34,058 nt of DNA from Nanobdellota archaeon (GCA_038045485.1 JBBSYA010000018.1:1-34058); one strand, 5' to 3'; counted from the stretch's first letter, positions 1 to 17,428 are shown. Made by a program: numbers and translations. Notes: generated from the letters alone by a model not told the origin.

Positions 1-1199
1 GAAGTTGTAGAATTAGTTAAATTAATTAAAGTGCCAGTAGAATTATAAATTCTTAGAGTTATATTAGCAAGATTTCCATAATTAGCTATTGCATTAACTG
101 AAATATTATTTCTACTAATAAAAGCTCCAGAAGTTTCTGTTGGTGAAGTAAAATTGGCTTGTATTCTAAAGAGCCCAACAGCATACCAGGAAATATTCTG
201 AGATTGTAATGCTCCATCTTTTTGAAAATATATCAGAGTTGAATTAAAAAATCGCGAGCTAAAAAATGAATTAGTCCAAGTACTTACGCCGCCAGTAGAA
301 TCTGAACTGCTTGCAATAAAAGTTCGGCTAGTGTTAACAGCAGTTATTGTTTGATTAATTTGTGTAGTTGTTGCAGCATAAGTAAAACCTGTCTGAGTTC
401 GAATACTATTATCCTCAATGATAAAATATTCTACACTTGCACTGCCCGTATTAGTCTGTCTATTAAAGGTAGCTGTTGTAGAGTTATATCTACCCATAAC
501 CATACTCGCTACCAGGGTAGAGGTATCCAGAGCTGTTGAAAATACCATAAAACTTTTAGAAACATTAACAGTAGAACTTAATATTGAATCTGCAGTGGTA
601 TCAGGTATAGTTAAAGAACCATTTATAACTCGAGAGTTATTCCAATCAACAACTTGCCAAATAAGCTCCCCCCCGTTACTATTTGTGCCAATTCTCTGTA
701 TATTCATTTGTGTAGCATTGTTAAATTTAGCTTTCCACATTCCTTGTTCCATTGCACCCGCAGTACCTATATTTAATCTTGTTCGAATGATTATAAATGA
801 ACTACTAAGATTTACCTGATTAATAGTAATATTATAATTACTTGTTCCTGCACCGGCACCATAAGAAAAATTACCTGATTGTGAAGAAATAATGCTCATG
901 TTTTCAGTTATAATCTGATACTCCACATTTGCAATTCCACCCGCATAATTATTCAGTTTTAAATTAGTTGAATTAGTTAATCTAGCAGTTACTAATATTG
1001 CATCAGGACCATTGCTAGTAGAACGAGCACTTGTTATTACAAAACTTTTGCTTATATTAATTGAAGTTATGCTTACATTAATTTCTCCATTAACACTAAC
1101 ATTTCCGCTCTGAACAGAAAAATCTGCGTGCACTCCGTTTAATAACGCTATGAACATTACAAATGCCGTAATTAAAATCCAGTTATGTTTTTGTTTCAT
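1..1199 (-). CDS. Secreted/surface glycoprotein with four H-type-lectin-like beta repeats (5' part only; runs off window start)
   Basis: Not in the ORF track because there is no stop in the window. ATG at 1199 reads MKQKHNWILITAFVMFIALLNGVHA-DFSVQSGNV (signal peptide ending VHA), open to base 1. N/S/T-rich with many N-x-S/T sequons and four ~80-aa repeats (QSG...ITxVNxSKSF...VxW/YQVVE). Confidence 0.8.
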   Translation of the reverse strand, partial: MKQKHNWILITAFVMFIALLNGVHADFSVQSGNVSVNGEINVSITSINISKSFVITSARSTSNGPDAILVTARLTNSTNLKLNNYAGGIANVEYQIITENMSIISSQSGNFSYGAGAGTSNYNITINQVNLSSSFIIIRTRLNIGTAGAMEQGMWKAKFNNATQMNIQRIGTNSNGGELIWQVVDWNNSRVINGSLTIPDTTADSILSSTVNVSKSFMVFSTALDTSTLVASMVMGRYNSTTATFNRQTNTGSASVEYFIIEDNSIRTQTGFTYAATTTQINQTITAVNTSRTFIASSSDSTGGVSTWTNSFFSSRFFNSTLIYFQKDGALQSQNISWYAVGLFRIQANFTSPTETSGAFISRNNISVNAIANYGNLANITLRIYNSTGTLINLTNSTT

Positions 1200-1359
1200 T
1201 TTTGGTGATTTTTCCTCTTTTAGTTCTATTAATTAATTCTGTTTCTTCATTCATCAATCGTTCAACTCTCTTAGAAACCACAATATCCTGTCCCTCGCAA
1301 GCTTTCTGAAAATCCGCATAAATCTTAGAGTCTACGCTCAGGGTAATTCTCTTTTGCAT
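1183..1359 (-). CDS. Small ribbon-helix-helix (CopG/Arc-like) DNA-binding protein, 58 aa
   Basis: Manual translation: MQKRITLSVDSKIYADFQKACEGQDIVVSKRVERLMNEETELINRTKRGKITKNETKT*. The KRITLSVD strand followed by two helices fits an RHH pattern. It overlaps the next ATG by 17 nt and has a TATA-like TTTAAAAA about 22 nt upstream. Confidence 0.7.
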   Translation of the reverse strand: MQKRITLSVDSKIYADFQKACEGQDIVVSKRVERLMNEETELINRTKRGKITKNETKT

Positions 1360-1380
1360 GAAATATAGTGGATTTCGGCA

Positions 1381-1428
1381 TTTTTAAATATTTACGTTTA
1401 AGTATTTATGCATAATTGTATGCATAAA
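1381..1428 (-). promoter_or_regulatory. TATA box plus palindromic operator upstream of the RHH gene
   Basis: TTTATGCATA-attg-TATGCATAAA (1405-1428) is a perfect 10-bp inverted repeat containing two TATGCATA palindromes. TATA-like element at 1381-1388 on the minus strand. Confidence 0.55.
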
Positions 1429-1484
1429 CTAAGAAACACAAAAATCTAATTTAAAATAATCCTAAAAAGTCCAAACAGAAAGTC

Positions 1485-2048
1485 CTATTTGCTCAAATCT
1501 ATAACCTTATCGCAAACTACTGCAATCTCATTAATTATTCTTTTATCGGTATCTTCCTGCAAACCAATCATTAGTCCGCAAAGTTTTTCGTCTCTTATTC
1601 TACTCACAAGAGAACGAGCAAATCTTACAATCATCTCTGGCTCATGATAAAGCGAAAGAGCATCAATAGAATCCAATAAAACAAAAGAATGCTGTCCTTT
1701 TTTGTATATCTGTTCTAAAGCAATTCCTATATTAGTCAAACTTTTTGCGCTTTTTATAAACGCACAATTTTCAGCCATAGAATCATTTTTAGTGCTAACA
1801 CAATCAATAAAAAATAATTTGCTATGGTCTATCCCTTCTTTATTGAGTGCTTCAATAATTGTTCTATACGGCCTATTTATTGCAACATACGCTCCATTTT
1901 TCTTGCTTTTTATCATATGTTTTATCATATGATGATTAAGTTCATGATAATTATCCCTAGGAAGAATGGTAAGAACTACAAAATTATCCTTAGCATTATT
2001 AAGCTCTTTTGTTAACCTCTTTTTCATATATCCCACAGTAAAAGCCAT
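1485..2048 (-). CDS. Degenerate (Walker A-less) KaiC/RecA-fold protein, DUF835-like
   Basis: YVAINRP, FFIDC, VLLDSIDAL (Walker B-like) and a C-terminal CDKVIDL, with no GxxGxGKT. Paralogous to 8884..9405. Confidence 0.7.
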   Translation of the reverse strand: MAFTVGYMKKRLTKELNNAKDNFVVLTILPRDNYHELNHHMIKHMIKSKKNGAYVAINRPYRTIIEALNKEGIDHSKLFFIDCVSTKNDSMAENCAFIKSAKSLTNIGIALEQIYKKGQHSFVLLDSIDALSLYHEPEMIVRFARSLVSRIRDEKLCGLMIGLQEDTDKRIINEIAVVCDKVIDLSK

Positions 2049-2126
2049 GTTTTAAATATTTCGATGTGAATTAGAACCTACTTTATTAAAATAACCCCCA
2101 ATAACTGAGCCCCTCAAAAAAAAATA

Positions 2127-2222
2127 AATTAATAAACTAAATTTTTCAAAGTTATTTAAAATTATAGATTTGTTTGAAAAATTTTATCTAAAAATCACAT
2201 AGAAATTGGCATAAGGTTTTAA
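2127..2222 (-). repeat. Dispersed repeat family B (inverted, partial copy)
   Basis: AAATTTTTCAAA...TTTGAAAAATTT hairpin. The minus-strand sequence resembles 16230-16305 and 18850-18940. Confidence 0.6.
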
Positions 2223-2250
2223 ATTTAAAGTCAAAAGGTTATTAGTATTT

Positions 2251-2280
2251 TATTTATTAGAATTTTATTTATTAGAATTT
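2251..2280. repeat. Perfect 15-bp tandem duplication
   Basis: TATTTATTAGAATTT occurs twice in tandem. Confidence 0.7.
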
Positions 2281-2286
2281 ATGCGA

Positions 2287-2339
2287 AGGCGAGAACTTGC
2301 ATTTAAGTAGTAAAATAGAAATAAGAATGCAAGTTCGAG
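2287..2339. repeat. Dispersed hairpin repeat family C, copy 1
   Basis: AGGCGAGAACTTGCATTTAAGTA...ATAAGAATGCAAGTTCGAG with an 11-bp stem GAACTTGCATT/AATGCAAGTTC. Near-identical to 33673-33726. Confidence 0.75.
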
Positions 2340-2356
2340 CCACTCTAGAAAATATT

Positions 2357-3346
2357 TTATCCGCCAACTCCGCCAAAAACTTCCTGCTCTGGATAGATAA
2401 TCAATCCCTTATCTGTTATTTGCATAGCAACAATTTTTTTCTGGTGTTTTTCTCCACGCATTTTAAGAATTTCAACTGCATTTTCCCTTATATCTCCTCT
2501 TTTAATATTGTATAGAACAATAACTCCGTCCGCTAAAAATTCTTCTACTCCTGAAGTTGAAAAAACTTCTGGAATTTGCTTTGTCTCTGCAATAAGAAAA
2601 CTTGTGCTTCCTAATCTTTCAAAAAATCTGAATAATTGTTCAATATAAATTCTATATGAATCTTCTTTTCCAGTAAACGCAGAAGCAATAGCCGTAAGAG
2701 AATCTAAAACTATAAAATCGGGCTTGAAATTTTTAGGCAGGATAACTGGTTCAATCTCTATAAGTAATTCACCTTTTTCTTTTGCAAGCATGGCATCAAC
2801 ATTCCTCGTAATTTCAAAAGGATTGATTCTTTCTATCTTTAAGTTTCCTGCTTTAATCATTTTATCTGCATCCCAGCCAAATTCCTTCATATGCTGTTTT
2901 AATTTATCTTCGCTTTCTTCAAAGCTCATATAAAAACACTTTTCACCTTTCGCAGCATGATAAGCAAGAGTTTGCAAACAAAAAATTGTTTTTCCACTTC
3001 CAGCCCCACCAGCTACAAGAACATTACTTCCCTTAGGAATTCCTTCTTGGAATAAATCATCAAATCCAGGAATTCCAGTATTAACATATTTGCTAATTTG
3101 TTTATTATACTTAAATTTTAAATCCTTTATTTTTGTGAGTGGTGCTCTCTGAACATTAATTTGTTCAACATGATTCATAGTTTTCGATTCTCCAGAATTA
3201 AGCGCTTTTTCTATATCTGCTTTAAGCGCAGATAAATCTATTTTTCCAGATGTTTTATCTTTAGAACTCTTTTCTTTCTTTATTTTAACAGGATTAACAA
3301 TCTTAGACTTCTTCGAATGCTCAACTTTTCCCTTCCCCTTTTTCAT
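2357..3346 (-). CDS. KaiC/RAD55-like single-domain ATPase with Lys-rich N-terminal extension
   Basis: TGIPGFD, Walker A GGAGSGKT, SFEE, Walker B VLDSLT, EEFLADGVI, ILKMRG. Confidence 0.92.
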   Translation of the reverse strand: MKKGKGKVEHSKKSKIVNPVKIKKEKSSKDKTSGKIDLSALKADIEKALNSGESKTMNHVEQINVQRAPLTKIKDLKFKYNKQISKYVNTGIPGFDDLFQEGIPKGSNVLVAGGAGSGKTIFCLQTLAYHAAKGEKCFYMSFEESEDKLKQHMKEFGWDADKMIKAGNLKIERINPFEITRNVDAMLAKEKGELLIEIEPVILPKNFKPDFIVLDSLTAIASAFTGKEDSYRIYIEQLFRFFERLGSTSFLIAETKQIPEVFSTSGVEEFLADGVIVLYNIKRGDIRENAVEILKMRGEKHQKKIVAMQITDKGLIIYPEQEVFGGVGG

Positions 3347-3441
3347 AATACTCTCAAGAAATAACTTTATTTAAACCTTATCCTCCAACCTCATTAGGGA
3401 GTTATCGAAATATTTATAAGCTCTTTTCACATAAAGAAATC

Positions 3442-3759
3442 ATGGTAGCATTAGGGGTGATTTTCTTAGCAACTATTTTAATTGGAATAATTGCAACAGT
3501 TTTAGCGTATTATGCGAATAAATATTCTTTAGACGAACTTAAAAAATCATTAAAGTTAAGACTATATGCTATAGCTCTTATCTGCTTCGGATTTATAGTT
3601 CATACTGCTGGAGACTATTACGGCCATTTATACGGCAGTGAAAATCTTGAGCTTACAATTGAGAGTATTGCCCACATTATTATATTCATATCAATAATAA
3701 TCTGCTTATTATCGACTAAAAAAATAATGGAAATATCCAAGGAGTATAAATTCAAATAA
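3442..3759 (+). CDS. Small three-TM membrane protein
   Basis: Three hydrophobic segments with His in TM2 and TM3. TATA (TTTATAAG) near 3413. Divergent from the KaiC-like gene. Confidence 0.7.
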   Translation: MVALGVIFLATILIGIIATVLAYYANKYSLDELKKSLKLRLYAIALICFGFIVHTAGDYYGHLYGSENLELTIESIAHIIIFISIIICLLSTKKIMEISKEYKFK

Positions 3760-3760
3760 A

Positions 3761-4108
3761 ATGATAGATATGTTATTAGTCGCACAAGTAAGTTCAAGCT
3801 TAACTATCTTAATGGGAATAATAGCCCTAATATTCACAATTAAAGCCATAAGCGGGCTTGCAGAAGATTCTTTTAAAACTCTTGTAAAAAGAATGGCTGT
3901 GTTTCTAATTTTAAGCATTATTGGAATTGCTTTTATGACTTCTTACCACATTATGGAAAGTTATGGGGGATTAGACATAACAATAGATATCTGGTATATT
4001 TTTATGTTCATGGCTATTGCATATTCAATCTATGATTCTTATAAAACGATTAAATTTGAAAAGCCAATTTATTCTATAGCCCTTAGAACAAAGAAAAAGA
4101 AAAGATAA
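3761..4108 (+). CDS. Small three-TM membrane protein
   Basis: Three hydrophobic segments and a basic C-terminus. Starts 1 nt after the previous stop and has similar topology. Confidence 0.7.
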   Translation: MIDMLLVAQVSSSLTILMGIIALIFTIKAISGLAEDSFKTLVKRMAVFLILSIIGIAFMTSYHIMESYGGLDITIDIWYIFMFMAIAYSIYDSYKTIKFEKPIYSIALRTKKKKR

Positions 4109-4269
4109 AAAGTCCTAAACTCCCAAGATTAATCTCGCTGAATTTATTGCTTCCAACCAATAAGCTCTCAAAAAAAAAGCTCATTAATTTTATTGAAAAT
4201 TATTAATTTTCAGTCTGGCTTTTTCTTCCGTTACTGTCTCTTTTTTATTCATTTTAGATTTTATCAGGT

Positions 4270-6507
4270 TTATTTTAAAATCCTCACAATGCCAACAATT
4301 CCTAAAACTTTGCCTTCTGGATTCCTAATGAGACTTAATCTGGTACTTATCTTCTCAAGTTTATTTCGAACCTTTATTGTTTCTTCAATATTCAGAGTTT
4401 TTCCTGTTTTCATTACTTTCTTAAGATTCTTCATAATCTGCTCGCCGGCTTTTTTAGGGAATACTTCCATTACAGATTTACCGATAATCTCTGCTCTTTT
4501 CTTCCCTACACTATCCATCATTGTTTTATTTATAGAGAGATATTTATAATTTTTATCAACAATAAACAATGCATCAGGCAATGATTCAATAAGAGCCCTA
4601 TCTTTTCCTTCTTCTGTTTTTTCATTAGTTAAATCCCTTACTGTCGCCTAAAGATAAGTTTTATCTCCTTCTTTAACTCTACTTAAAAGGACTGTTGCTG
4701 GAAAATCTTCGCCAGTTAATCTTCTATGAGTCCACTCAAAAAAGTTCTTTCCTTCCTTAATTGCAGTTTCAATCATTTTTTTAGCTTTTATCGAAGAAAG
4801 TTGTCCGTCAGACTGTTTTTCAGGAGAAAATTCCCAAGGAGCACGAGAAGTAAAATCTTTTTCATCCTTAGCAATAAACATTCCAATAGCCGCAGGATTT
4901 CCAGAAGTGAATTTCCAAGTTGGTGGCTCTAAAGTCATAATTGCATCGCTTGAAGTTTCATAAAGAGCCCTATATTTTTCTTCTGCCTCTTCTTTTGCTT
5001 TTATTGCTTCTCCTAAACCTAATTCTGCCTTGGTTAATCCTGTTCTTAAAACAGCAAGCTTCAAAGTAGCTAAAATTCTATTAATTGAATTATTCAAGCC
5101 TTGAATTTCGGTTATCTCGCTTTTTTCAAGCTGCAAGTCTAATTTTCCCTTGCTGACTTCTTCAACTTCTTCTTCCAGTCTTTTAAGCTGTCTTGAAATT
5201 GAACTGGAAATATTAAAAGAAACAATTATAGATATTAATAAAATTAAAATTAAAGAAAAAATATACACCGCACTTAATTCTTTAGACTGCTGAATTATCT
5301 GCTCCCTTAAATTTGCAGATGTTTGAGATTCAAGATCTGCCCAATCAGAATAAAGCTGCGCAAGTTCATACTTATAGTTATCATAGTTTTCAGCGACTAT
5401 TAGGGAGAATGCGGTCTTGGTATCATTTTTCTCAATAGCTGCAAATGCTCTGGTTTCTAAATCTACTAATAATAAATTAACTCTATCGAGTTCAGCAAGG
5501 TCTTCTTTTATTCTATCTTTAATTTCTTGAGCTCGCTTGCTTTTTTCCAATAAAGCTGGCGCATCTATTTTTAGGAGATTATCTAATTCTGCTCCAATTT
5601 CATCATAATAATCCTTATGAAAGCTAACATCTGCAACTTCTCCTTTTTGCGCATGGAGAAGAGCAGCATGGGCTGCTCCTGTCAATATGGCGTCATATCC
5701 AATAACCTGCTGAACCATTAATCCAAGCGGAGCTTCAACATCTCTAAGCTGTTCAGTATTAGAAAGTCTTAAGTTATTCATCTGTGAGCTCAATCCAACC
5801 ATAAATACTATTAAGAAAAGAATTAAGAAAAATCCTAAGAAAATTCTTTCTCTAAGCGGAATGCTCTTTTCTTCATACATTTTTCCAGCCAACATCCATA
5901 TAGCTACTCCAATTATTAAGAAAAGAAAAGCAGTATGCAGAGCCATAGCCGAACTAATATTTTCAAAATAAAAATATAAAAAGGGTTTATTAAAAATATA
6001 TCCAAAAATTGAGCTCAAGCCAGAAATACTGATAATTACTGCAAAAATTTTAAGAATTTTTGTCTTTTTTGTATAAAAAGAAAATAATCCTGCTAAAGAT
6101 ATCAAAACAAAATCAATCATTGTAGCAGTAGAAGGCAGTCCGGGCTTAACCGTTAAAATTGCTCCTGCTGCTTCTTTTATAACCAAATTTTCAATAGCAC
6201 TGCTTATTCCTAAAAGAGTTGTTACAAGAATATAACCCATAAAGAGAAGCAGAATAATAGAAAAAAATAAGGTTATTCTCTTATTAAAAGCAAAAGAGCC
6301 AAAAAGCTGTGAAACACCGAGCAAGATTATTGAACTAATTAAAAAAGCAACAGCTGTTGAAAACTTCATCGTGACAAAACCTGGCAGAATGCTTTTCAGC
6401 ACAGCAATATCAAAAATCCAGCCCATAATAACTATTATTGCTGCAATAAAAACTATGAGAGTTATCGCGCCTAATGCTTGTTTTTCCAGCCGATTATTTT
6501 GCTTCAT
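4270..6507 (-). pseudogene. Multi-TM sensor with helical extracellular domain, HAMP and two PAS domains, interrupted by an in-frame TAG at 4648-4650
   Basis: ORFs 4648..6507 and 4270..4581 are in the same frame. The junction reads KTYL*ATVRDLTNEKTEEGKDRALIESLPDALF, so the stop falls in the PAC motif (usually LQATVRD). Full length would be 745 aa, with no kinase domain. Confidence 0.75.
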
Positions 6508-8602
6508 TTTCCTCTTTTTCTACTTTATTCATTATAAGCGCGACTTTGTTTTTAAATTCTTCTGCTTTCTCTCCAGAGAGAATTCCTTTTCTAACCAAGA
6601 ACTTAATATACTCCATTATAGAATCATAAGATATTCCATTGCTTTTCATCAAATATTCAAATTCTTTATCTCCAAGAGGACCAATATACTCTCTAAATAA
6701 ATTTTTAAGCGCTTCATCAACATTGGCACTGTTTGAAAACAGCAGTCTTATTGCTTTCATTTCACGAATTGGCTTCAATGGAACAGTAAAATAAAATATT
6801 GTTCCTTTTGACAATTGAGAAACGAGCCAAATCTTGCCATTCTGGCTCTCAACAATTCCCTTAGAAATAGCTAAACCCAAACCAGTTCCTCCGGTTTTAT
6901 GCTGATACATGTTATCTGCCTGATAAAAGGGCTCAAATAATCTTCTTTGGTCCTTTTCAGAAATACCTACACCATTATCTTTTACTGAAAATAAAATCAT
7001 ACCCTTAAAAAGTTTAGCAGAAATTTCTATCTTGGAATTTTCGGGTGAAAATTTAATAGCATTATTAATTAAATTTCTCAAAACTTGAGAAACTCTATCA
7101 GGGTCAACTTCTATTGTGGGGAGCTTTTCTGCCTTAATTTCTATCTTAATATTCTTCTCAGGCATAAAACCCTTCATCTCGTTAACAACATTGTCAATAG
7201 TCTTTGCTAAGTCTGCTTTAATAAAATTAAATTTTAATCTTGCTGCTTCAATTCGCGAAATTTCCAAAAAGTCAACTATAATTTTATCCAATCTTTCAGT
7301 ATTATTCAAAACAATCTGCAGAGATTCTCTCTGCTCTTTATTCAATTTTCCGAAATAATCTCCAAGCACCATCTGCAACTGAGCCTTCATCGGAGTCATA
7401 GGCGAGCGAAGTTCATGCGAAGTAATTGAAAGAAATTCTGTTTTTGCCTTATCTATCTGGTTTTTTTCTTTATCAAGATTTTCAAGAGCTTCTGCAGTTT
7501 TATTAAATATGTTTCCAAGGAGTTCAATTTCATCTCCACTTTTAATATTAACTCTTGCTTTAAAATCCTGATTTCGCAATTTTTCATTTGCGGCAGTAAG
7601 CTCCTCTACGGGTTTGGTAATTCTTCTGGAAATAAAATATCCTACAAACAGAAAAACTATTATAACTAAAATTGTAATAAAAATAGCCACACCGAGAGAA
7701 AGGCGTTGTATCGGCAAAATTACCTCAGCCCTATCTATCTTAGCAACAATGCCAAGTCCAATATCAGGAGTATAATGTGTAAATGCAATAACCTCAACGC
7801 CTCGATAATCCAATGATTTATCAAAGAATACTGATTTTCCTTGCAGAGCATTTTCCATAGGAATTCCTGTAACTACAGAATAATTTCCTTCGTTTTCATA
7901 AAGTCTTGCAAAAGGATGAATGTCATTTCCATTTTTATCCTCAAAGGCAATTAAAACCTCTCCTGTTTCTCTTAAGCCTGCTCTTTGCAAAACAATATCT
8001 TCAAGATTATCAAAGTATTCTGTAGTGATGATTACGCCCATTAATTTTCCGTTTTGTTTTATCGGCCCAGAAACAACAATTCTCCAGTCATCTTCTCCAA
8101 GCTTAAAAAAATAAGCACCCTCTTTTTGCTTTCCTTTTATAAAAAAATTCTCTGTGCTAAAATCCCTGCCTTGAAGAAGAAGGTCGTCACAAGCAACAGC
8201 TTCTCCGCTAAGATTAATAAAGCATACGCATTCAATCTCTTCAATAGAGCTTCTTGAATCTTTAAGCTTTTGAATAATCTTAGCCTCAAATTCACTATTT
8301 GAATCTAAGAGATAATTTTCTATATCTACTCTTAGTTGAGTTCTGCTGGTAATCAGCTTTATTCTTTCTATATCTTGATTAATGTAAGTTTCAATATGGC
8401 CGGCTCGTGAATCTACGGTGGTTTCAAGATGCGCTTCTATTTCAGAAGTTATAAGACTTACCGAAACTGTATAAAAGATAAATGTTCCAATTATTGCCAT
8501 GCAAAAACCTAATACTAAAAATGAAAAAGTTATTTTTCTGCTGATTTTTCCTAAGAAAAATCTTTTCAAGCTAAAACTATTTTGTTCAAAATTATCAGTC
8601 AT
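6494..8602 (-). CDS. Sensor histidine kinase (TM-Cache-TM-HAMP-HisKA-HATPase_c plus C-terminal helical domain)
   Basis: H-box TSHELRSP, N-box NLINNAIKF, G1 DNGVG, F-box LFEPF, G2 GTGLGL, HAMP ITKPVEEL...DEIELL. Confidence 0.95.
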   Translation of the reverse strand: MTDNFEQNSFSLKRFFLGKISRKITFSFLVLGFCMAIIGTFIFYTVSVSLITSEIEAHLETTVDSRAGHIETYINQDIERIKLITSRTQLRVDIENYLLDSNSEFEAKIIQKLKDSRSSIEEIECVCFINLSGEAVACDDLLLQGRDFSTENFFIKGKQKEGAYFFKLGEDDWRIVVSGPIKQNGKLMGVIITTEYFDNLEDIVLQRAGLRETGEVLIAFEDKNGNDIHPFARLYENEGNYSVVTGIPMENALQGKSVFFDKSLDYRGVEVIAFTHYTPDIGLGIVAKIDRAEVILPIQRLSLGVAIFITILVIIVFLFVGYFISRRITKPVEELTAANEKLRNQDFKARVNIKSGDEIELLGNIFNKTAEALENLDKEKNQIDKAKTEFLSITSHELRSPMTPMKAQLQMVLGDYFGKLNKEQRESLQIVLNNTERLDKIIVDFLEISRIEAARLKFNFIKADLAKTIDNVVNEMKGFMPEKNIKIEIKAEKLPTIEVDPDRVSQVLRNLINNAIKFSPENSKIEISAKLFKGMILFSVKDNGVGISEKDQRRLFEPFYQADNMYQHKTGGTGLGLAISKGIVESQNGKIWLVSQLSKGTIFYFTVPLKPIREMKAIRLLFSNSANVDEALKNLFREYIGPLGDKEFEYLMKSNGISYDSIMEYIKFLVRKGILSGEKAEEFKNKVALIMNKVEKEENEAK

Positions 8603-8883
8603 ACTTCCCTCTTTTTCCTCTGAAATAACATGGAAAACATGTTTTTAAATTCTACGAGGGCAAAAAGTCCAATTAAACGACTACCCAATTAACAGTCCAA
8701 ATAATTAAACCCCAATCTCCCAAAAATCTATTGAAATTATTAAAATAAGGTAACAAGAGATTGCTAAACAAGTGAAACAATCGAGCAGTTAGATTTGTTT
8801 TACCATTTTTACTATTTTTGAATAAAATGAAAAAATAGCTAACTCAAGGGAAAAACGAGTGGAGAAAAACCGTTAGGTTTGTC

Positions 8884-9405
8884 TTACAACTCAATAACCT
8901 TATCAACAAACATTCCAGATTCTTTAATCAGGGCTTCCTGTTCTTTAACTGAAAGAGCATAAAATATTGCCTTAGTTTTGCTTTCCTTAATCTTATTAAC
9001 GAGCGAAGCAACAAACTTTCCAACAGGTGCTTTGCTCTCGTAAACCAGCAAATTTGTTAATGAATCAAAAATAAGATAATCAAAATTATGCCTTATAAAT
9101 TTTGAAATAACTAAAGATATTTCAGTTAAAGCCCCTGGCGAAGATACATAATAAACTCCTTCAGATTCTTCAGGAGTACTTTTTATTGTTTTTGAGATAG
9201 CATCAATAAAAACAATATTGTCTGTTTTAACTTTATTTTTTTTGAATAATTCAATTAAAGAATCACGAGTCTTATTCAAAGTAACATATGCTATGCTCTT
9301 GCCTGCTAACTTTTTGGCTACATCAACAATTTCTTTATTATAATCTGTGCTCGACATAATCAAAAGTATTGTTTGATTTTCAGAAAGTTCTTTTTTTATA
9401 TCCAT
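8884..9405 (-). CDS. Degenerate KaiC/RecA-fold protein, DUF835-like (paralog of 1485..2048)
   Basis: YVTLNK, VFIDAIS, LIFDSLTNLL and FVDKVIEL, with no Walker A. Confidence 0.7.
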   Translation of the reverse strand: MDIKKELSENQTILLIMSSTDYNKEIVDVAKKLAGKSIAYVTLNKTRDSLIELFKKNKVKTDNIVFIDAISKTIKSTPEESEGVYYVSSPGALTEISLVISKFIRHNFDYLIFDSLTNLLVYESKAPVGKFVASLVNKIKESKTKAIFYALSVKEQEALIKESGMFVDKVIEL

Positions 9406-9442
9406 TTTTTTAGACTATTAAATTTATTTGAAAAATGGATAA

Positions 9443-9516
9443 TCAGAAATTTAGTAAATTTCTGAGTATAAAAAATCCTGTTAAGCAAATCCGAAGGATT
9501 TAGTTGATTTTTTATA
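9443..9516. repeat. Structured repeat family A, copy 1
   Basis: Hairpin TCAGAAATTTA-g-TAAATTTCTGA, then outer stem TATAAAAAATC/GATTTTTTATA enclosing AAATCC-GAA-GGATTT. Confidence 0.8.
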
Positions 9517-9547
9517 TCCATGTTTATTTTTCATCAACCTCTTTTTA

Positions 9548-9928
9548 TTATACGTTAAACTCCTGCAATTTAAATTCTTTTCTTATTACTTTTAATAAAA
9601 CACGGATATCAACAGGTTTTTCCAGAGCGCCTATTGCATTTTTAAAACTTTTAATTTTATCTCTATCAATTTCAAAACCACTCATAAAAAGAACTTTTTG
9701 TTTAGGTAACTCTTTAGCAATATCATATCCCTCTTCATCATTGCCCAATCTTATATCTAAAAGAAGTAAATCTGGCTTTTCTTTTTTTGCTTTGGCTATA
9801 GCATCTTTAACGTTATAAGCCTGAAATGTCTTAAATCCATTATAGTCTAAAAGTTGCGAAAGAGAAACCGCAGTTTGAACATGATCATCGATAATTCCAA
9901 TCTTAATATCTGCGGGTTTTTTTGTCAT
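9548..9928 (-). CDS. Stand-alone response regulator receiver (CheY-like)
   Basis: IIDD, phosphoacceptor LLLD, S in FMSG, and KP are all conserved. Confidence 0.92.
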   Translation of the reverse strand: MTKKPADIKIGIIDDHVQTAVSLSQLLDYNGFKTFQAYNVKDAIAKAKKEKPDLLLLDIRLGNDEEGYDIAKELPKQKVLFMSGFEIDRDKIKSFKNAIGALEKPVDIRVLLKVIRKEFKLQEFNV

Positions 9929-9970
9929 ATTATTTTTTATTAACCCCCATTTTAGTTAAAAAATAATCAG

Positions 9971-10043
9971 TCAGAAAATTATTAATTTTCTGAATATGAA
10001 AAATCTTGTACTGCCAAAGCGAAGCTTTTAGTTGATTTTTCAT
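9971..10043. repeat. Structured repeat family A, copy 2
   Basis: TCAGAAAATTA-t-TAATTTTCTGA, then outer stem ATGAAAAATC/GATTTTTCAT enclosing AAAGC-GAA-GCTTT. Confidence 0.8.
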
Positions 10044-10044
10044 C

Positions 10045-10401
10045 TTAACCCACTATTTTCTTTACTCTTTTAAGAAGTTCATTTATATCAAATGGCTTTT
10101 GTATAAAATCAACAATATTTTTAGATTTCATTAAATCTTCTTTTTCAGCTTCAGAGGTTCTAACAACAGAAAGATAAGCAATCTTAACATTACCCAGTTT
10201 AGGAATTACTTCACGAACAGGAGTTCCCGGCATCATAATATCCATTAAGATTAAAGCCGGCTTTTCTCCAGCTTTTATCTTTTTTAAACAATCATCAGCA
10301 TTAACTGCTGTAACGACATCATATCCTGCCTTAGTTAAAACAGTTTTAACTGTACTTCTTATATCTGCTTCATCATCCACAACCATTATTTTTTTTGCCA
10401 T
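10045..10401 (-). CDS. Stand-alone response regulator receiver (CheY-like)
   Basis: VVDDE, LMDIMMP, YLS, QKPF. Confidence 0.93.
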   Translation of the reverse strand: MAKKIMVVDDEADIRSTVKTVLTKAGYDVVTAVNADDCLKKIKAGEKPALILMDIMMPGTPVREVIPKLGNVKIAYLSVVRTSEAEKEDLMKSKNIVDFIQKPFDINELLKRVKKIVG

Positions 10402-10419
10402 CTTAAAATCTTTTATTTC

Positions 10420-10842
10420 TCATTTTCTGCAGTATTTATCATAAGCAGGATAAAGTATACTCTCTTCAATACCCACCCTTCTTTTAACTGTTGTTATAAT
10501 CAAGTCAGCCTCCTTTTTAAATTTAGCATTTTTTAATAAATCTGAAAGAATCATATTATTATATTTTTCAAAGAATATCATTGCAACCTTAGATATTGCG
10601 GTCATTTCTGTTGAAAACTTTTTTCCTAAATTCTGGGCTTCTTTAAATTTAGACATCTCAAAAGAAGGATACAGCATTCTATCTTCTAAGGCTAAATGCG
10701 CAATAAGGAAATCTTTAAGATTATTCAATTCTTCAATTAAATAATTATCTTCTACATCGCCTTTAGCCATCTCATCGCCTATTGCCTTAAAAAAATGCAG
10801 AATTTCAACGTGCTGTTGTTTTAGCTGAACAATTAAATCCAT
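10420..10842 (-). CDS. Hemerythrin-like (HHE cation-binding) protein
   Basis: LKQQH, HLALEDRMLYP and EESILYP repeats of the HHE fold. Confidence 0.85.
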   Translation of the reverse strand: MDLIVQLKQQHVEILHFFKAIGDEMAKGDVEDNYLIEELNNLKDFLIAHLALEDRMLYPSFEMSKFKEAQNLGKKFSTEMTAISKVAMIFFEKYNNMILSDLLKNAKFKKEADLIITTVKRRVGIEESILYPAYDKYCRK

Positions 10843-10859
10843 GTTATTTTTTATTAAGT

Positions 10860-11210
10860 TTATTTAAGTGCTTTTTTTACTTCCTTAATTAAATTAGCGG
10901 GCATAAATGGTTTTTGCACAAACCCATCAATATCTCTCAAATCAACATCACATTTAGGAATAATGGAAACATATATCATTTTAACTTTATGATTAAGTCT
11001 TTCTCTCAAGAGTCTAAGCAAATCATAACCTGAAAGAGTCGGCATCTTTATATCCAATAAGATTGCGTCAGGTCTATTGTCTTTTATGCAGTCAAGAGCG
11101 TCTGCGCCATTATCTGCAGTTAAAATCTTATACTTTTCTTTTTCCAGAACTAATTTCATAGTTTCCGTATCATTTATATCATCATCAATTATAAGTATTG
11201 TTTTAGCCAT
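10860..11210 (-). CDS. Stand-alone response regulator receiver (CheY-like)
   Basis: IIDDD, LLDIKMP, SGYDLL, QKPF. Confidence 0.93.
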   Translation of the reverse strand: MAKTILIIDDDINDTETMKLVLEKEKYKILTADNGADALDCIKDNRPDAILLDIKMPTLSGYDLLRLLRERLNHKVKMIYVSIIPKCDVDLRDIDGFVQKPFMPANLIKEVKKALK

Positions 11211-11356: not shown

Positions 11357-12742
11357 ATGGCAACAATCCCAAAAATAGGTTTAGAAATACACGGCTATCT
11401 TACTACTAAAGAAAAGCTTTTTTGCAATTGCAAGAACGAGCATAAAAGCAAAGATGCTAAACCTAACACTTTTATTTGCCCAACCTGTACCGGAACTCCT
11501 GGCTCAAAACCAATGCTTCCAAATGAAGAAGCTGTTAAAAAACTCATTCAAATCGCTTTAATGCTTAATTGCAAAGTTAATACTATCGAAAATAAGAAAC
11601 CATTAATCTGGTGGAGAAAACACTATTCTTGGCCAGACCTACCAAAAGGCTATCAAAATACAATTTCAGGAACTTATGCAAATCCTGTTGGAGAAAAAGG
11701 CGAGTTTTTAGGCATTAGAATAACTGAAGTTCATCTTGAAGAAGACCCTGCTGCATGGAATCCTGATTCAGGAGAAATTGATTATAATCGAAGCGGCGCC
11801 CCTTTAGTCGAAATAGTTACAGAACCTGATTTTACGAATTCAGAACAAGTAGAAAAATGGCTTAAAGAAATGATTCTAACAATGTCTTATATTAAGGCAC
11901 TTGATTCTGACGCAGGCATAAAAGCAGACGTTAATGTTTCGATTAATAATGGTGAAAGAGTTGAAATAAAAAATATGAACTCTATTGGAGAAATAAAAAA
12001 AGCAATAGAACATGAAATTAAACGCCAAGAAAAAGAAAAAGTTGAAGGAAGACAAACTCGCCAATGGAATACTTCAAAACAGCAAACAGTTTTAATGAGA
12101 ACTAAAGAATCTCATGCGGACTATCGTTTTATCAAAGAGCCAGACCTTCCAATAATAAAATTAACCAATGCAGAAGTAAATGAAATAAAAAAGAAACTTC
12201 CAGAATCTCCGATGGTAAAACTTGATAAAATAATAAAAAAGCACAAAATTACTGAATATTACGCTAAAATCCTGGTTAGTAACTTAGAAATAATAGAATT
12301 CTTTGAAAAGATTATTGAAAATCCAAAAACTCCGGTTAACCTTGCAGTTCCATGGATTACAATAGAACTTTTAGGAATGCTGAATTATAATAAAAAAACA
12401 ATGGCTGATGTTAACATCCAACCCGCTCATTTTATTGAGCTTCTAAAATTAGTTGATGAAGGTAAACTTACTGAATTAAAAGCAAAAGATATTCTCAGAA
12501 GTTGGAAAGAAAAATCTAGCGAGATTAAGCTTGGAAATATCTCTGCAATTTCAGATAGCTCAGAAATCGACAAAATTGTTGAGTCAGTTTTAGCAGATAA
12601 AAATAATCAAAGAGCCATAGAAGATTATAAATCAGGAAATACTCAAACAATAAATTTCTTAATCGGCGCAGTTATGAAAGCCAGCAACAAGAGGGCTGAT
12701 TTTGCAACTACCAAGAAATTGCTAGAAGAAAAGCTGAAATAA
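11357..12742 (+). CDS. gatB: Asp-tRNA(Asn)/Glu-tRNA(Gln) amidotransferase subunit B
   Basis: IGLEIH, KLFC, CPTC-G-PG, HLEED, DYNRSGAPLVEIVTEPD, RVEIKN, DYRF-EPDL and a C-terminal YqeY-like domain. Confidence 0.95.
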   Translation: MATIPKIGLEIHGYLTTKEKLFCNCKNEHKSKDAKPNTFICPTCTGTPGSKPMLPNEEAVKKLIQIALMLNCKVNTIENKKPLIWWRKHYSWPDLPKGYQNTISGTYANPVGEKGEFLGIRITEVHLEEDPAAWNPDSGEIDYNRSGAPLVEIVTEPDFTNSEQVEKWLKEMILTMSYIKALDSDAGIKADVNVSINNGERVEIKNMNSIGEIKKAIEHEIKRQEKEKVEGRQTRQWNTSKQQTVLMRTKESHADYRFIKEPDLPIIKLTNAEVNEIKKKLPESPMVKLDKIIKKHKITEYYAKILVSNLEIIEFFEKIIENPKTPVNLAVPWITIELLGMLNYNKKTMADVNIQPAHFIELLKLVDEGKLTELKAKDILRSWKEKSSEIKLGNISAISDSSEIDKIVESVLADKNNQRAIEDYKSGNTQTINFLIGAVMKASNKRADFATTKKLLEEKLK

Positions 12743-12780: not shown

Positions 12781-13530
12781 CTACTTTTTAGCTATTTTCC
12801 AAAGATGTTCAAAGTAAGATTTCATCTCTTCTGAAATCTTTTTATTCTTTATTTCTACTACATTTGAATTATCTTCCAAATAAAAAAAATAGACATAACC
12901 ATCAAAGATTATTGTTGTAGCTTCTGAAGGTAAGTCTATGAATTTATTTTCCCCCATTTTAGAGAATATTTCCATAAATGGATTATCTTTAAATTTGGGA
13001 TTCCATAAACCCCAACACTTAATCTTTTTTTTGATATTTGCATTAGAAAGTTCTTTTAACAATCTTTGAATTAAAAGATTAGAGCTTTTTGTGGTTATTT
13101 TTGGATTGTTTCCAAGCATATATACAAAAGTTAATTCTTGTTTTTTAATAAGTTCTACAATTTTAAAATCAATACCTAAAAAAGCGTTTTCTGAATCTAT
13201 GTGCTTAACTAAGGTTTCTTCTTTAGACTCCAAAGTTTTAAGTTTGGGTGCAAGAGATAGCAATAACTCCTCTTTGCTTTTAACAACACCAATAATCTCT
13301 ATTATATCTCTTGCATGATAAATCATCTTACTGCCGTCTAGAGATTTAGAAATAAAACCTTTTTCTATCAATCTTTCTAAAACATCATAACAAGTAGATT
13401 TGAATATTTTTGTTCCATTAGCTATTTTATAAGCAGTTATTCCATTATTTTCGACTAAAAACAAGAATATATCTACTTCTTTAGGAGAAAGGCCATATTC
13501 CTTAAGTGTATTCATTATATCTTCTTTCAT
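12781..13530 (-). CDS. TrmB-family transcriptional regulator
   Basis: LKEYGLSPKEVDIFLFL...YDVLERLIEKGFI winged HTH. C-terminal effector domain ends SYFEHLWKIAK. Confidence 0.88.
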   Translation of the reverse strand: MKEDIMNTLKEYGLSPKEVDIFLFLVENNGITAYKIANGTKIFKSTCYDVLERLIEKGFISKSLDGSKMIYHARDIIEIIGVVKSKEELLLSLAPKLKTLESKEETLVKHIDSENAFLGIDFKIVELIKKQELTFVYMLGNNPKITTKSSNLLIQRLLKELSNANIKKKIKCWGLWNPKFKDNPFMEIFSKMGENKFIDLPSEATTIIFDGYVYFFYLEDNSNVVEIKNKKISEEMKSYFEHLWKIAKK

Positions 13531-16369: not shown

Positions 16370-17428
16370 TTACTCTTCCTCATCGTCATCCTCTATTCTT
16401 TTAATCTCTCCAAGCAATCTTTCTTTAAAGAATAAAATCTTATCCGCAGGAACTCTTGCGCCAGTAGAATGCTCATGCCCTCCACCAGAAGCGCCATCGA
16501 TATCTTTAATCGCATTTATCGTAGCAGTTCTAATATCTTTTTCCCAGCGCAGAGAAATATTTGAAATACCGCCCTTAGTATAAACAACTACAATAACTTT
16601 ATGGGGATATTTATAGAGTAATTCATTAGCTGCATACTGGCTTATGCTCAAATCTCCTGCATAATTAAAAAATACTATATCTTTCTCGACAAACTCTTCC
16701 GCTTTTTTAATAATCTTTTGATATTTTTCATTAATTTCATTAAATCTTTTTAACAAATTTTTGGTTTTAGAATTTTCCTCAAGCAAATCATAAGGATTTT
16801 TTGCATTAACTAGTAGTTTAATCATAGCAACAACATTTGTAACTGTATCTCTTAATCCAAAACTAAGAATCATAGCCAATTTTCCAAGTCGGCTATTGTA
16901 TACTATATCGTAGGCTTTTTTATATTTATTCTCTATTAATTCAGGATATCTTTCTTTGAGCTCTTCAATATAATCTGGAAGATAAGAATCAGTTATACAT
17001 CCAATTGCAGAAATCCACATATCTTCTTTTCTATTTGTAATCTTATAGCAAAGATATGAAACAGGCTCTATCTTTCCACTAGAATAAAACGTATTATAAT
17101 AATATTGAGCTTTTGATTTAGCAACATTGTGATGATCAATATGAACAACAGGGATATTTCTTTTTTCTGCTTCCTCAATAAAATCGTCATCCACAACAGG
17201 CTTATCCACGATAAAAATATAATCTGCTTGCAATTCTTCAACTCGTTTAAAATAAGTCCCACTTAAACCTGGATGAGATTTAATAGCAATTCCTCTTCCT
17301 CTTCCAATAAATCTCTGCAAAAGCAAAAAACTGCACAATCCATCCGGATCATTATCAAAAAAGAAAACCGGATTTCTCGCATTCTCCAGATGTTCTCTTA
17401 TCTCTTGAATTTCTTTATCCGTCAGCAT
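16370..17428 (-). CDS. DHH/DHHA1 family phosphoesterase
   Basis: DNDPDG, IVD, IDHH, SLR and GGGH motifs. Confidence 0.9.
   Translation of the reverse strand: MLTDKEIQEIREHLENARNPVFFFDNDPDGLCSFLLLQRFIGRGRGIAIKSHPGLSGTYFKRVEELQADYIFIVDKPVVDDDFIEEAEKRNIPVVHIDHHNVAKSKAQYYYNTFYSSGKIEPVSYLCYKITNRKEDMWISAIGCITDSYLPDYIEELKERYPELIENKYKKAYDIVYNSRLGKLAMILSFGLRDTVTNVVAMIKLLVNAKNPYDLLEENSKTKNLLKRFNEINEKYQKIIKKAEEFVEKDIVFFNYAGDLSISQYAANELLYKYPHKVIVVVYTKGGISNISLRWEKDIRTATINAIKDIDGASGGGHEHSTGARVPADKILFFKERLLGEIKRIEDDDEEE

Follow-up and report, generated by a model that had tools for sequence, protein, structure and literature searches.

What a KaiC-like ATPase does when it is encoded beside a sensor kinase, receiver proteins and two KaiC relatives without ATPase motifs is the question raised by positions 1485–11210 of a 34,058-nucleotide stretch of DNA from a Nanobdellota archaeon (the window, by which the whole stretch is meant). 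A sequence-only reading had described the region as a KaiC-centred phosphorelay. Its components were identified from ORF calls, from Pfam and NCBIfam profiles and from two structure models of high confidence, in a small genome whose assembly is 76% complete, and all of the genes that had been listed (KaiC, two pseudo-KaiCs, a kinase, a receptor, three receivers, a hemerythrin and two TM ORFs) are present. With a probability of roughly 0.6, the region represents a cassette for two-component sensing that recurs in DPANN archaea and Thermoplasmatota; its core would consist of a receiver (REC2), an inactivated KaiC-fold protein (iKaiC; psKaiC2) and a histidine kinase, with the iKaiC serving as an adaptor toward KaiC.

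The first gene of the minus-strand run specifies REC1 (10860–11210), a stand-alone receiver; REC2 (10045–10401) and REC3 (9548–9928), an extra receiver between REC2 and the iKaiC, are encoded further along it. The three match PF00072 at 7e-20, 2e-16 and 1e-15, respectively, and the phosphoacceptor pocket is intact in each, with the acidic pair, the acceptor Asp, the Ser and the Lys all kept. Orthologues of REC1 (62–72% identity) occupy the same position in four related genomes (G001, G002, G021 and G024); for REC3, only G001 (86%) and G021 (62%) yielded one. The kinase (6494–8602, minus strand) is composed of a TM segment, dCache, a second TM segment, HAMP, HisKA (1.9e-15), HATPase_c (1.7e-30) and a helical C-terminal tail of about 90 residues. 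The dCache_1 match, at 37.9 bits, lies below the Pfam cut-off of 45, yet it spans profile positions 3–239 of 240. With the H-box His present in its translation, the protein is classed by sequence as a class I sensor histidine kinase, and Pfam shows no receiver domain in it, so that it is not a hybrid kinase. Its tail aligns in 31 of the 45 loci with a kinase match and is assigned to neither a Pfam family nor a named Atlas family, although Atlas structure rows place a similar tail on a Thermoplasmatota kinase cluster. The tail contains no His and is therefore not an Hpt domain.

Profile searches of the 76%-complete genome likewise gave no match to the Hpt family, and the term phosphorelay is accordingly not supported. 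The same searches gave no match to KaiB, CheW or MCPsignal; CheW and the MCP signalling domain are the two components by which a chemotaxis (Che) pathway would be recognised. A gene for a TrmB-family HTH protein closely flanks the island (12781–13530, minus strand) and is not fused to a receiver.

The active KaiC-like ATPase (2357–3346, minus strand) has a single domain preceded by a Lys-rich N-terminal extension. It matches PF06745 at 2e-55 (188 bits, cut-off 26.6) over profile positions 1–230 of 231, and its Walker A motif (GGAGSGKT), E143/E144 and Walker B D215 are invariant in an alignment of 47 orthologous sequences. Two more specific identities were rejected. Against circadian KaiC (TIGR02655 and NF006799) stand scores of 107 bits (cut-off 546) and 147 bits (cut-off 408), the single domain and the failure to find KaiB; for ArlH/FlaH it scored 51 bits against an equivalog cut-off of 215. 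Among its best 120 homologues, 14 carry an N-terminal hemerythrin domain and one carries an HTH.

psKaiC1 (1485–2048, minus strand), encoded downstream of KaiC, and psKaiC2 (8884–9405, minus strand) are 26% identical to one another (E 8.5e-14). psKaiC1 matches PF06745 at 1e-9 and DUF7504 at 1e-7. In both proteins the matches to PF06745, DUF7504 and DUF7090 start past the P-loop, those to KaiC beginning at profile positions 41–48. Their DUF7504 scores of 32.9 and 28.2 bits exceed the cut-off of 27; DUF835 reaches only 18.5 bits against 33.1, so the proteins are not filed under that family. The predicted models are confident (pLDDT 94.3 for psKaiC1 and 91.0 for psKaiC2), and their best PDB matches are FlaH, PH0284, KaiC and RecA, with TMq of 0.64–0.74 and a probability of 1.00; FlaH and PH0284 are among the best for each, and FlaH (4yds) ranks first or second for both. 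Judged by these models both iKaiCs have the KaiC/RecA fold, which answers the concern that the pseudo-KaiC ORFs might model as something unrelated. Both have lost the P-loop and the catalytic glutamates: a profile alignment, itself of low probability and weighed alongside the fold, places non-catalytic residues opposite the P-loop and Glu-Glu positions of KaiC.

Neither family is rare. psKaiC2 has 525 homologues at E<=1e-3, with a mean column identity of 72% and 33 invariant columns over 28 sequences, and psKaiC1 is matched by 1883 cluster representatives at the same threshold. Among relatives of psKaiC1 there are fusions with dCache-HAMP, with an adenylate cyclase and with KaiB-V4R, which indicate that the iKaiC behaves as a signalling module.

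Using psKaiC2, 76 related loci were defined; because their source genomes are kin, counts over these loci cannot be treated as independent. Of 74 evaluable loci, 66 have a same-strand receiver immediately upstream of the iKaiC and eight have none there; a kinase core follows within 2.5 kb downstream, again on the same strand, in 37 of 55. In 65 of 67 loci, from DPANN and Thermoplasmatota, the upstream receiver was best matched by REC2 as query. The REC2-type and iKaiC genes are mostly separated by gaps of 0–5 nt or overlap by 4 nt, and in two Thermoplasmatota loci they are fused end to end (L097, 345 aa; L099, 319 aa). In the window the corresponding gap between REC3 and psKaiC2 is 142 nt and that between KaiC and psKaiC1 is 308 nt; tight translational coupling is thus not evident here. 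The conserved centre is the trio of REC2, iKaiC and kinase, and KaiC is optional. The neighbourhood conservation that the sequence-only reading had set as a test is thus borne out for receiver, iKaiC and kinase; its description of the island as KaiC-centred is not, and the idea of a symbiont circuit sits poorly with the presence of the module in Thermoplasmatota records.

The fusions suggest how the separate genes function: the REC2–iKaiC pair probably works like a REC-iKaiC regulator, of which it would be a split variant, and by sequence psKaiC2 is the probable output partner of REC2. Fusions of iKaiC-REC (in Methanosarcinaceae), REC-DUF835 and MEDS-REC have been published (Galperin 2018, PMC5847659, Table 2). 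As far as the architectures in that table go, the window resembles those regulators in coupling an intact-Asp receiver to a KaiC fold without ATPase motifs, with no DNA-binding output, and in having orthologues of REC2 and psKaiC2 joined in one protein in L097 and L099. It differs from the tabulated examples in that no single REC-iKaiC polypeptide was found in the window, receiver and iKaiC being separate adjacent genes with a further receiver between them; in that the iKaiC matches DUF7504/DUF7090 and not DUF835; and in that the same run continues with a dedicated kinase, whose C-tail is conserved. The protein-level output proposed earlier agrees with what the same source gives for archaeal two-component systems generally (Galperin 2018, PMC5847659).

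In the mechanism that we favour, the dCache domain of the kinase would, judging by its domain families, sense an extracytoplasmic ligand and trigger autophosphorylation, and the phosphoryl group would pass to the receiver-only proteins, whose acceptor residues are intact. Phosphorylated REC2 would then act on psKaiC2, its partner in the genome and presumably by direct binding, the two forming a split REC-iKaiC response regulator. In the most tentative step, the iKaiC would act as an adaptor toward the KaiC-like ATPase and the other dead paralogue, and would thereby alter how active the ATPase is or how its rings assemble. Here the core is extended by two more receivers, a hemerythrin-family protein poor in ligands and a HAMP-PAS-PAS receptor that lacks a kinase; the core lies some 2.5 kb from the genes of the KaiC-like ATPase and the second iKaiC.

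KaiC-like ATPases were reportedly proposed as hubs of archaeal signal transduction by Makarova, Galperin and Koonin in 2017 (mBio), a comparative-genomic proposal said to draw for the most part on cultivated archaea with complete genomes. The window fits such hubs in that its two-component genes and inactivated KaiC paralogues have the gene of a single-domain KaiC-family ATPase as their neighbour, and in that variable sensor domains (hemerythrin, HTH) are fused in KaiC orthologues. The cyanobacterial KaiABC clock, with its SasA/CikA–RpaA output, likewise combines a KaiC-family ATPase, histidine kinases and a receiver protein, and communicates by protein–protein contacts; in the window, however, KaiC is single-domain, KaiB was not found, no receiver is fused to a DNA-binding domain, and no feature suggests an oscillator. 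The KaiC-like ATPase that serves the archaellum motor, ArlH/FlaH, shares the single-domain KaiC fold, and FlaH is the first or second structural match of each iKaiC, but the active KaiC falls far below the ArlH cut-off, neither iKaiC scores on the NCBIfam ArlH model, and the window is without archaellum genes. The cassette is a split-gene variant of an already proposed archaeal signalling design and no new kind of system.

Whether the cassette and the active KaiC belong together is the point at which other explanations enter. Two independent systems may lie side by side, a REC-iKaiC-kinase cassette without an ATPase output, and a KaiC whose own iKaiC serves something else, such as the assembly of a surface structure or the remodelling of DNA or protein. 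KaiC was found in 23 of the 76 loci overall and, where both flanks are complete, lies within 10 kb in nine of 18 and is absent there in the other nine; one locus (L070) has the whole cassette and a hemerythrin and no KaiC within that distance. The two halves of the window are different transcription units, split by two membrane ORFs that are convergent or divergent with their neighbours, and in G039 KaiC-iKaiC pairs occur with no REC or kinase match in the stretches examined. Against such a separation, an iKaiC is present in each of the seven relatives that have a close KaiC orthologue, versus five of 54 other relatives. KaiC is found beside kinase/receptor genes in G002, G019, G021 and G024, and lies within a few kb of them in four genera, in genomes with just one or two KaiC copies per 0.7–1 Mb, while G045 has a compact operon in which HK, REC, iKaiC and KaiC form a single tight run. 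The conservation expected for KaiC itself therefore holds only loosely, in the relatives with close orthologues and in half of the fully flanked loci. A predicted complex of the KaiC core with psKaiC1, the interface proposed earlier, is weakly positive: its ipSAE of 0.39 (best control 0.00) is graded by the tool as weak support and falls in a range in which the tool's calibration shows more false than true passes. In this prediction the partner pLDDT is at least 86 and the contacts agree across three runs; since KaiC hexamer structures have been solved, resemblance to these, and not binding, may account for the pass. Taken together, independent systems appear rather unlikely.

A different role for the iKaiC beside REC2 would be that of a kinase regulator that docks on the C-tail and sets the balance of kinase and phosphatase, the extra receivers being phosphate sinks. 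The iKaiC gene does lie between REC2 and the kinase, which it overlaps by 20 nt in L070; the His-free tail co-occurs with the module and has a similar counterpart placed on a Thermoplasmatota kinase cluster, and only one assembled kinase of this kind may be available in the genome to all three receivers. The REC-iKaiC fusions (L097 and L099), together with the published architectures as tabulated, nevertheless put the iKaiC at the usual position of an output domain, and in the dCache-HAMP-iKaiC fusions the iKaiC replaces a kinase and does not regulate one. A regulator of this type is improbable, and the reading of psKaiC2 as output of REC2 is retained.

The receptor bears on a further alternative, in which the Walker-A-less KaiC copies and a stop-interrupted receptor are pseudogenes of a decaying island in a shrinking genome. 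This kinase-less membrane protein (4270–6507, minus strand), with multiple TM segments, a helical sensor, HAMP, PAS_8 and PAS_4 (Pfam), forms one continuous frame apart from an in-frame TAG at 4648–4650, in the last strand of its first PAS domain. The interruption, the loss of ATPase motifs from both KaiC paralogues and the small genome are what decay would predict. However, position 4650 is A in the window and in run X1 and G in runs X2, X3 and X4, so that three of four public runs, a second sample included, read CAG; the equivalent residue is Gln in G021 and L070, and the latter encodes an uninterrupted receptor of 764 aa with 57% identity. TAG acts as an ordinary stop throughout the genome and is not recoded, for which reason the stop is most readily explained as a Gln-codon variant of a single run. 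The iKaiC families are, moreover, widespread and conserved, and their models confident. Decay is largely refuted and can be regarded as very improbable.

The hemerythrin-family (HHE) four-helix protein (10420–10842, minus strand) matches PF01814 at 8e-9 (36.4 bits, cut-off 25.3), and homologues occur in seven of the 76 loci. Oxygen-binding hemerythrins coordinate their di-iron site through five His, one Glu and one Asp. The full set was not found in this protein, in which only two His are conserved over eight aligned sequences and the C-terminal half is without His in every orthologue; an O2 or metal input through it, as had been supposed, is thus not upheld.

At the other end of the region, an Asn/Ser/Thr-rich secreted protein (3–1199, minus strand; N-terminal 399 aa, running off the window) is only a candidate member of the system. 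It matched no Pfam or NCBIfam family and nothing in the 76 loci, and it adjoins KaiC only in genomes of the same genus (G001 and G002), which leaves the suggested control of an adhesin-like gene with adjacency within one genus. Between KaiC and the receptor lie two small plus-strand membrane ORFs, TM1 (3442–3759), divergent from KaiC, and TM2 (3761–4108), convergent with the receptor. Neither matched a Pfam family above cut-off, and TM2 gave no match in the 76 loci. Both have counterparts in G001 only (88% and 86% identical, respectively), and they are weakly similar to one another (26% over 90 aa).

The analyzed genome comprises 723,900 bp in 61 contigs, with an estimated completeness of 76% and a G+C content of approximately 31%. 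Archaeal genes in the window include those for Nre, TFIIE-alpha, a GatB/E-type amidotransferase and an archaeal-type ProRS, and the closest named records for the window proteins carry the labels Woesearchaeota, Pacearchaeota or Nanoarchaeota. On the strength of this gene content, the small genome and the DPANN-labelled neighbors, the description "reduced DPANN-like genome" is a fair one.

ORF listing together with Pfam and NCBIfam scans revealed all of the components that the sequence-only reading had claimed for the island. The minus-strand run from 11210 down to 4270 specifies, in order, a receiver (REC1), a hemerythrin-family protein, two further receivers (REC2, REC3), an inactivated KaiC-fold protein (psKaiC2, 8884–9405), a sensor kinase and a receptor; the intergenic spacing is 17, 18, 116, 142 and 281 nt, with the last pair overlapping by 14 nt. 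The kinase has a dCache-HAMP-HisKA-HATPase_c architecture followed by a tail of about 90 amino acids belonging to no family, and the receptor consists of a multi-TM region, a helical sensor, HAMP and two PAS domains. Beyond these lie two small membrane ORFs on the plus strand (TM1 and TM2, 3442–4108), a single-domain KaiC-like ATPase (2357–3346, minus strand), a second inactivated KaiC-fold protein (psKaiC1, 1485–2048, minus strand) and an Asn/Ser/Thr-rich, adhesin-like secreted protein (3–1199, minus strand) which extends past the window edge. In the active KaiC the Walker A and Walker B motifs and the Glu pair are intact and do not vary across 47 orthologs, and each of the three island receivers retains its acidic pair together with the acceptor Asp, a Ser and a Lys. 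The genome contains six receiver matches, three of them in the island, two HATPase_c matches, one being the island kinase, and two full KaiC genes, one in the island. No members of the CheW, MCP-signal, Hpt or KaiB families were found in this 76% complete genome. A TrmB-family winged-helix regulator (12781–13530, minus strand) is located two genes past REC1, beyond gatB; it had no match in the related loci, where no conserved tie to the cassette was seen.

The KaiC/DUF7504 Pfam matches of psKaiC1 and psKaiC2 begin at profile position ~41–48, that is, past the P-loop, and the two proteins show 26% identity to one another (E-value 8.5e-14). AlphaFold models were obtained with pLDDT values of 94.3 for psKaiC1 (50-row alignment) and 91.0 for psKaiC2 (28-row alignment). 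When both models were compared with the PDB using Foldseek, the best matches were FlaH (4yds), PH0284 (2dr3), KaiC and RecA, with TMq values of 0.64–0.74; the proposed pseudo-KaiC proteins thus match KaiC/RecA folds and not an unrelated one. Probabilities were very low, at 6% and 4%, when the profiles of these inactivated KaiC-fold proteins (iKaiC) were aligned to that of KaiC using hhalign, so that the family assignment depends on the Pfam matches together with the fold. An invariant Asn-Lys-Thr in psKaiC2 was considered as a P-loop remnant and dropped, as profile alignment places this strand on the Glu-Glu strand of KaiC.

The psKaiC2 family is tightly conserved, with 33 invariant columns in the 28-sequence alignment and 525 homologs at E≤1e-3 among 597 candidates. 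That of psKaiC1 is broader (1883 cluster representatives at E≤1e-3). Ten of its longer members were scanned, revealing one each of dCache-HAMP-iKaiC, adenylate cyclase-iKaiC, KaiB-V4R-iKaiC and tandem iKaiC, while the remaining six possess N-terminal extensions with no assigned domain. In these fusions iKaiC thus acts as a module for output or adaptor functions in signalling.

Conservation of the gene neighborhood was assessed at 76 loci, recovered by a pattern scan of species-representative genomes using the psKaiC2 alignment, with features counted by tblastn of the window proteins. The loci are labelled chiefly Woesearchaeota, Pacearchaeota and Nanoarchaeota, with a minority assigned to Iainarchaeum, Micrarchaeota, Undinarchaeota, Aenigmarchaeota, Thermoplasmatota and Methanosarcinales, and three to bacteria. 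The core of the cassette proved to be conserved: a same-strand receiver lies immediately upstream of the psKaiC2 homolog in 66 of the 74 loci having at least 450 nt of upstream sequence (two were not evaluable), and a same-strand kinase core follows within 2.5 kb in 37 of the 55 with such a flank. REC2 was the best match for the upstream receiver in 65 of 67 rows, and the two genes are mostly separated by 0–5 nt or overlap by 4 nt; at two Thermoplasmatota loci they are fused into one ORF, of 345 (L097) and 319 (L099) amino acids. The kinases constitute an orthologous group with 45–72% identity. The remaining components are less regular: a second iKaiC is present at 16 of the 76 loci, a homolog of the island hemerythrin-like protein at seven, and a HAMP-PAS receptor of the island type downstream at just six of the 41 loci for which 5 kb or more of downstream sequence is available. 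TM1, TM2 and the secreted protein had no match at the 76 loci and recur solely in genomes of the same genus. The similarity between TM1 and TM2, obtained by BLAST against a small database with no correction for composition, is suggestive at most.

Among 61 related genomes, 12 encode an iKaiC and seven a close ortholog of the island KaiC (≥59% identity), all seven belonging to the iKaiC-bearing 12. In two of these genomes (G021 and G024) KaiC is found a few kb past the kinase and receptor genes, and in two more (G002 and G019) it likewise follows the kinase/receptor, on contigs separate from those carrying REC2 and iKaiC, to which the contig ends probably join. A further genome, G045, has the kinase, receiver, iKaiC and KaiC in a single tight run, and G039 contains KaiC-iKaiC pairs. 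Since these genomes carry only one or two copies of KaiC per 0.7–1 Mb, chance proximity is unlikely, although the genomes are kin. A predicted complex of the KaiC core with psKaiC1 gave an ipSAE of 0.39 (0.36, 0.39 and 0.39 in three runs) versus 0.00 for the best control, with a partner pLDDT of at least 86 and contacts consistent among the three runs. In the calibration of such scores, 58 of the 80 solved complexes passed the mark, as did two of 110 mismatches, and the range up to 0.60 held just seven of the solved complexes plus both passing mismatches. The predicted binding is graded by the tool as weak support, and since KaiC ring structures have been solved the pass may reflect likeness to these.

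The frame of the receptor is broken once, by a TAG at 4648–4650 that falls within the final strand of PAS1, after which it stays open for 125 codons covering the complete second PAS. Genome-wide, TAG functions as an ordinary stop codon, with 83 of the 400 ORFs that are 200 amino acids or longer ending in it. Recoding was rejected, as frames are as short after TAG as after the other stops: among ORFs of at least 150 amino acids the median open frame is 6 codons after TAG (n=98), 7 after TAA and 8 after TGA, and only three of the 98 TAG-ended ORFs have 80 or more further open codons. When contigs of four public sequencing runs were compared with the island, position 4650 was A solely in run X1, possibly the run from which the assembly derives; the base was G, giving CAG (Gln), in X3 from the same sample and in X2 and X4 from a second sample. 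Gln also occupies this position in the G021 receptor and in the ortholog at locus L070, an uninterrupted protein of 764 amino acids with 57% identity. The receptor is therefore a single HAMP-PAS-PAS gene and the stop a variant seen, at the level of contigs, in one run. A 7,924-nt contig from the second sample covers 952–8875, differs only at position 4650, and thus independently reproduces the arrangement from psKaiC1 to the kinase.

The sensor modules are shuffled between the two adjacent receptors (window 4651–8602 versus L027, L028 and L020). In the window and at L070 the dCache domain is on the kinase, with the multi-TM region and helical sensor on the PAS receptor; in G021, G024 and G001 dCache is on the PAS receptor, the helical sensor on the kinase, and the multi-TM domain forms a separate gene. 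An assembly chimera was rejected as the cause, since the second-sample contig agrees with the window and the same dCache-kinase architecture occurs at L070 and several other loci. Summed contig depth is approximately twofold in X1 and X2 at 8801–9600 (psKaiC2/REC3) and 11601–12000 (part of gatB), and many loose contig ends fall at 9202–10003; the assembly graph branches at psKaiC2/REC3 and gatB because these conserved stretches are shared with further strains or species present in the samples.

Five hemerythrin-domain genes are present in the 724-kb genome, on contigs C45, C14, C2 and C44 and in the window (10420–10842). The island protein scores above the Pfam cut-off. Its alignment with seven orthologs showed two conserved His residues and several carboxylates, with no His in the C-terminal half, and, set against the canonical ligand set, does not support a canonical di-iron O2 site. 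Classical bacteriohemerythrin, a different type, forms the N-terminal domain of 14 of the best 120 KaiC homologs, with an HTH in its place in one; the N-terminus of the island KaiC has only a Lys-rich stretch and a conserved linker. Stand-alone bacteriohemerythrin follows the receptor in G021, G024, G002 and L070. The corresponding HMM detected five of the 76 loci, a partly circular count, as three of the five supplied seeds or equal seed DNA. In a genome of the same genus (L115, contig C22 of G002, 2912–7609), the interval separating the receptor from an adhesin-like repeat protein contains two tandem KaiC genes, one with a fused hemerythrin domain, as well as a stand-alone bacteriohemerythrin and another hemerythrin-fused protein.

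Taking the domain content, folds, gene linkage and fusions as observed, the best-supported reading is that the cassette is a two-component system in which the receiver-only REC2 acts through a dedicated, inactive KaiC-fold partner. The tailed sensor kinase would provide the input, with phosphotransfer to the receivers; REC2 would bind iKaiC, which would in turn act on the active KaiC, this ATPase and a second iKaiC being frequent downstream or parallel partners. The cassette would thereby be a split version of the REC-iKaiC response regulators that Galperin et al. 2018 (PMC5847659) list in a table. The term "phosphorelay", used previously for the island, is not supported in its strict sense, as neither an Hpt domain nor a hybrid kinase was found in the 76% complete genome. 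For control of the adjacent surface adhesin, also proposed, the association is seen at the genus level only and is so far a coincidence.

KaiC (E<1e-15) is found within 10 kb of the psKaiC2 homolog at nine of the 18 loci with full flanks, and anywhere in the flanks obtained at 23 of 76. That the island consists of two independent systems which are simply neighbors is a less probable alternative. The kinase alignment extends into the C-terminal tail at 31 of the 45 loci with a kinase match, and this tail corresponded to no named family in an Atlas look-up. Regulation of the kinase by iKaiC via the tail is regarded as improbable, and decay of the island as highly improbable. As an extension of the two-component reading, inactive and active KaiC might form mixed RecA-type rings whose composition or activity is set by receiver phosphorylation and, in relatives, also by the KaiC-fused hemerythrin. 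The idea is speculative and rather unlikely; if true, two-component signalling in tiny DPANN cells would have as its output a phosphorylation-gated ATPase machine rather than transcription factors, and this machine might control a surface protein used in contact with the host.

The majority of archaeal response regulators are receiver-only proteins with no known target. The receiver-iKaiC-kinase trio, tightly conserved in many uncultivated DPANN and Thermoplasmatota, gives one class of receiver a concrete candidate partner. The principle of KaiC ATPases as archaeal signalling hubs was reportedly published by Makarova in 2017, and the active KaiC-like ATPase often found nearby offers a direct experimental handle on this "KaiC hub" proposal; a hemerythrin sensor domain is present on many close orthologs of this ATPase. 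With just two HATPase_c-type matches in a 0.7-Mb genome, the cassette may be the cell's principal means of sensing its environment. A literature text search, whose scope lay outside the Makarova 2017 paper and its supplements, found no paper dealing with the cassette in DPANN or with fusions of hemerythrin to KaiC, and nothing on DUF7504, DUF7090, DUF835 or inactivated KaiC beyond Galperin 2018 (PMC5847659), where the principle of a receiver coupled to an inactivated KaiC is already presented. Beyond this, the window contributes an elaboration with three receivers, the resolution of the TAG variant, the link to hemerythrin-KaiC fusions and a weakly positive KaiC-iKaiC prediction.

Other genes in the window include a DisA-type diadenylate cyclase (DAC and linker; 17598–18710, minus strand) adjoining a DHH/DHHA1 phosphoesterase (16370–17428, minus strand), a combination resembling a synthase/phosphodiesterase pair for c-di-AMP, here in an archaeal genome of very small size. 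The alanyl-tRNA synthetase ORF (26058–27782, plus strand), having just 574 amino acids with the catalytic core and SAD domain, may represent a short version of the enzyme or a split one. Within the 1200 amino acid leucyl-tRNA synthetase ORF (28910–32512, minus strand), Pfam detected a serine hydrolase (residues 307–455, 1e-14) and a NUDIX domain (residues 634–733, 7e-13), insertions which flank the editing domain and are unusual for an aminoacyl-tRNA synthetase.
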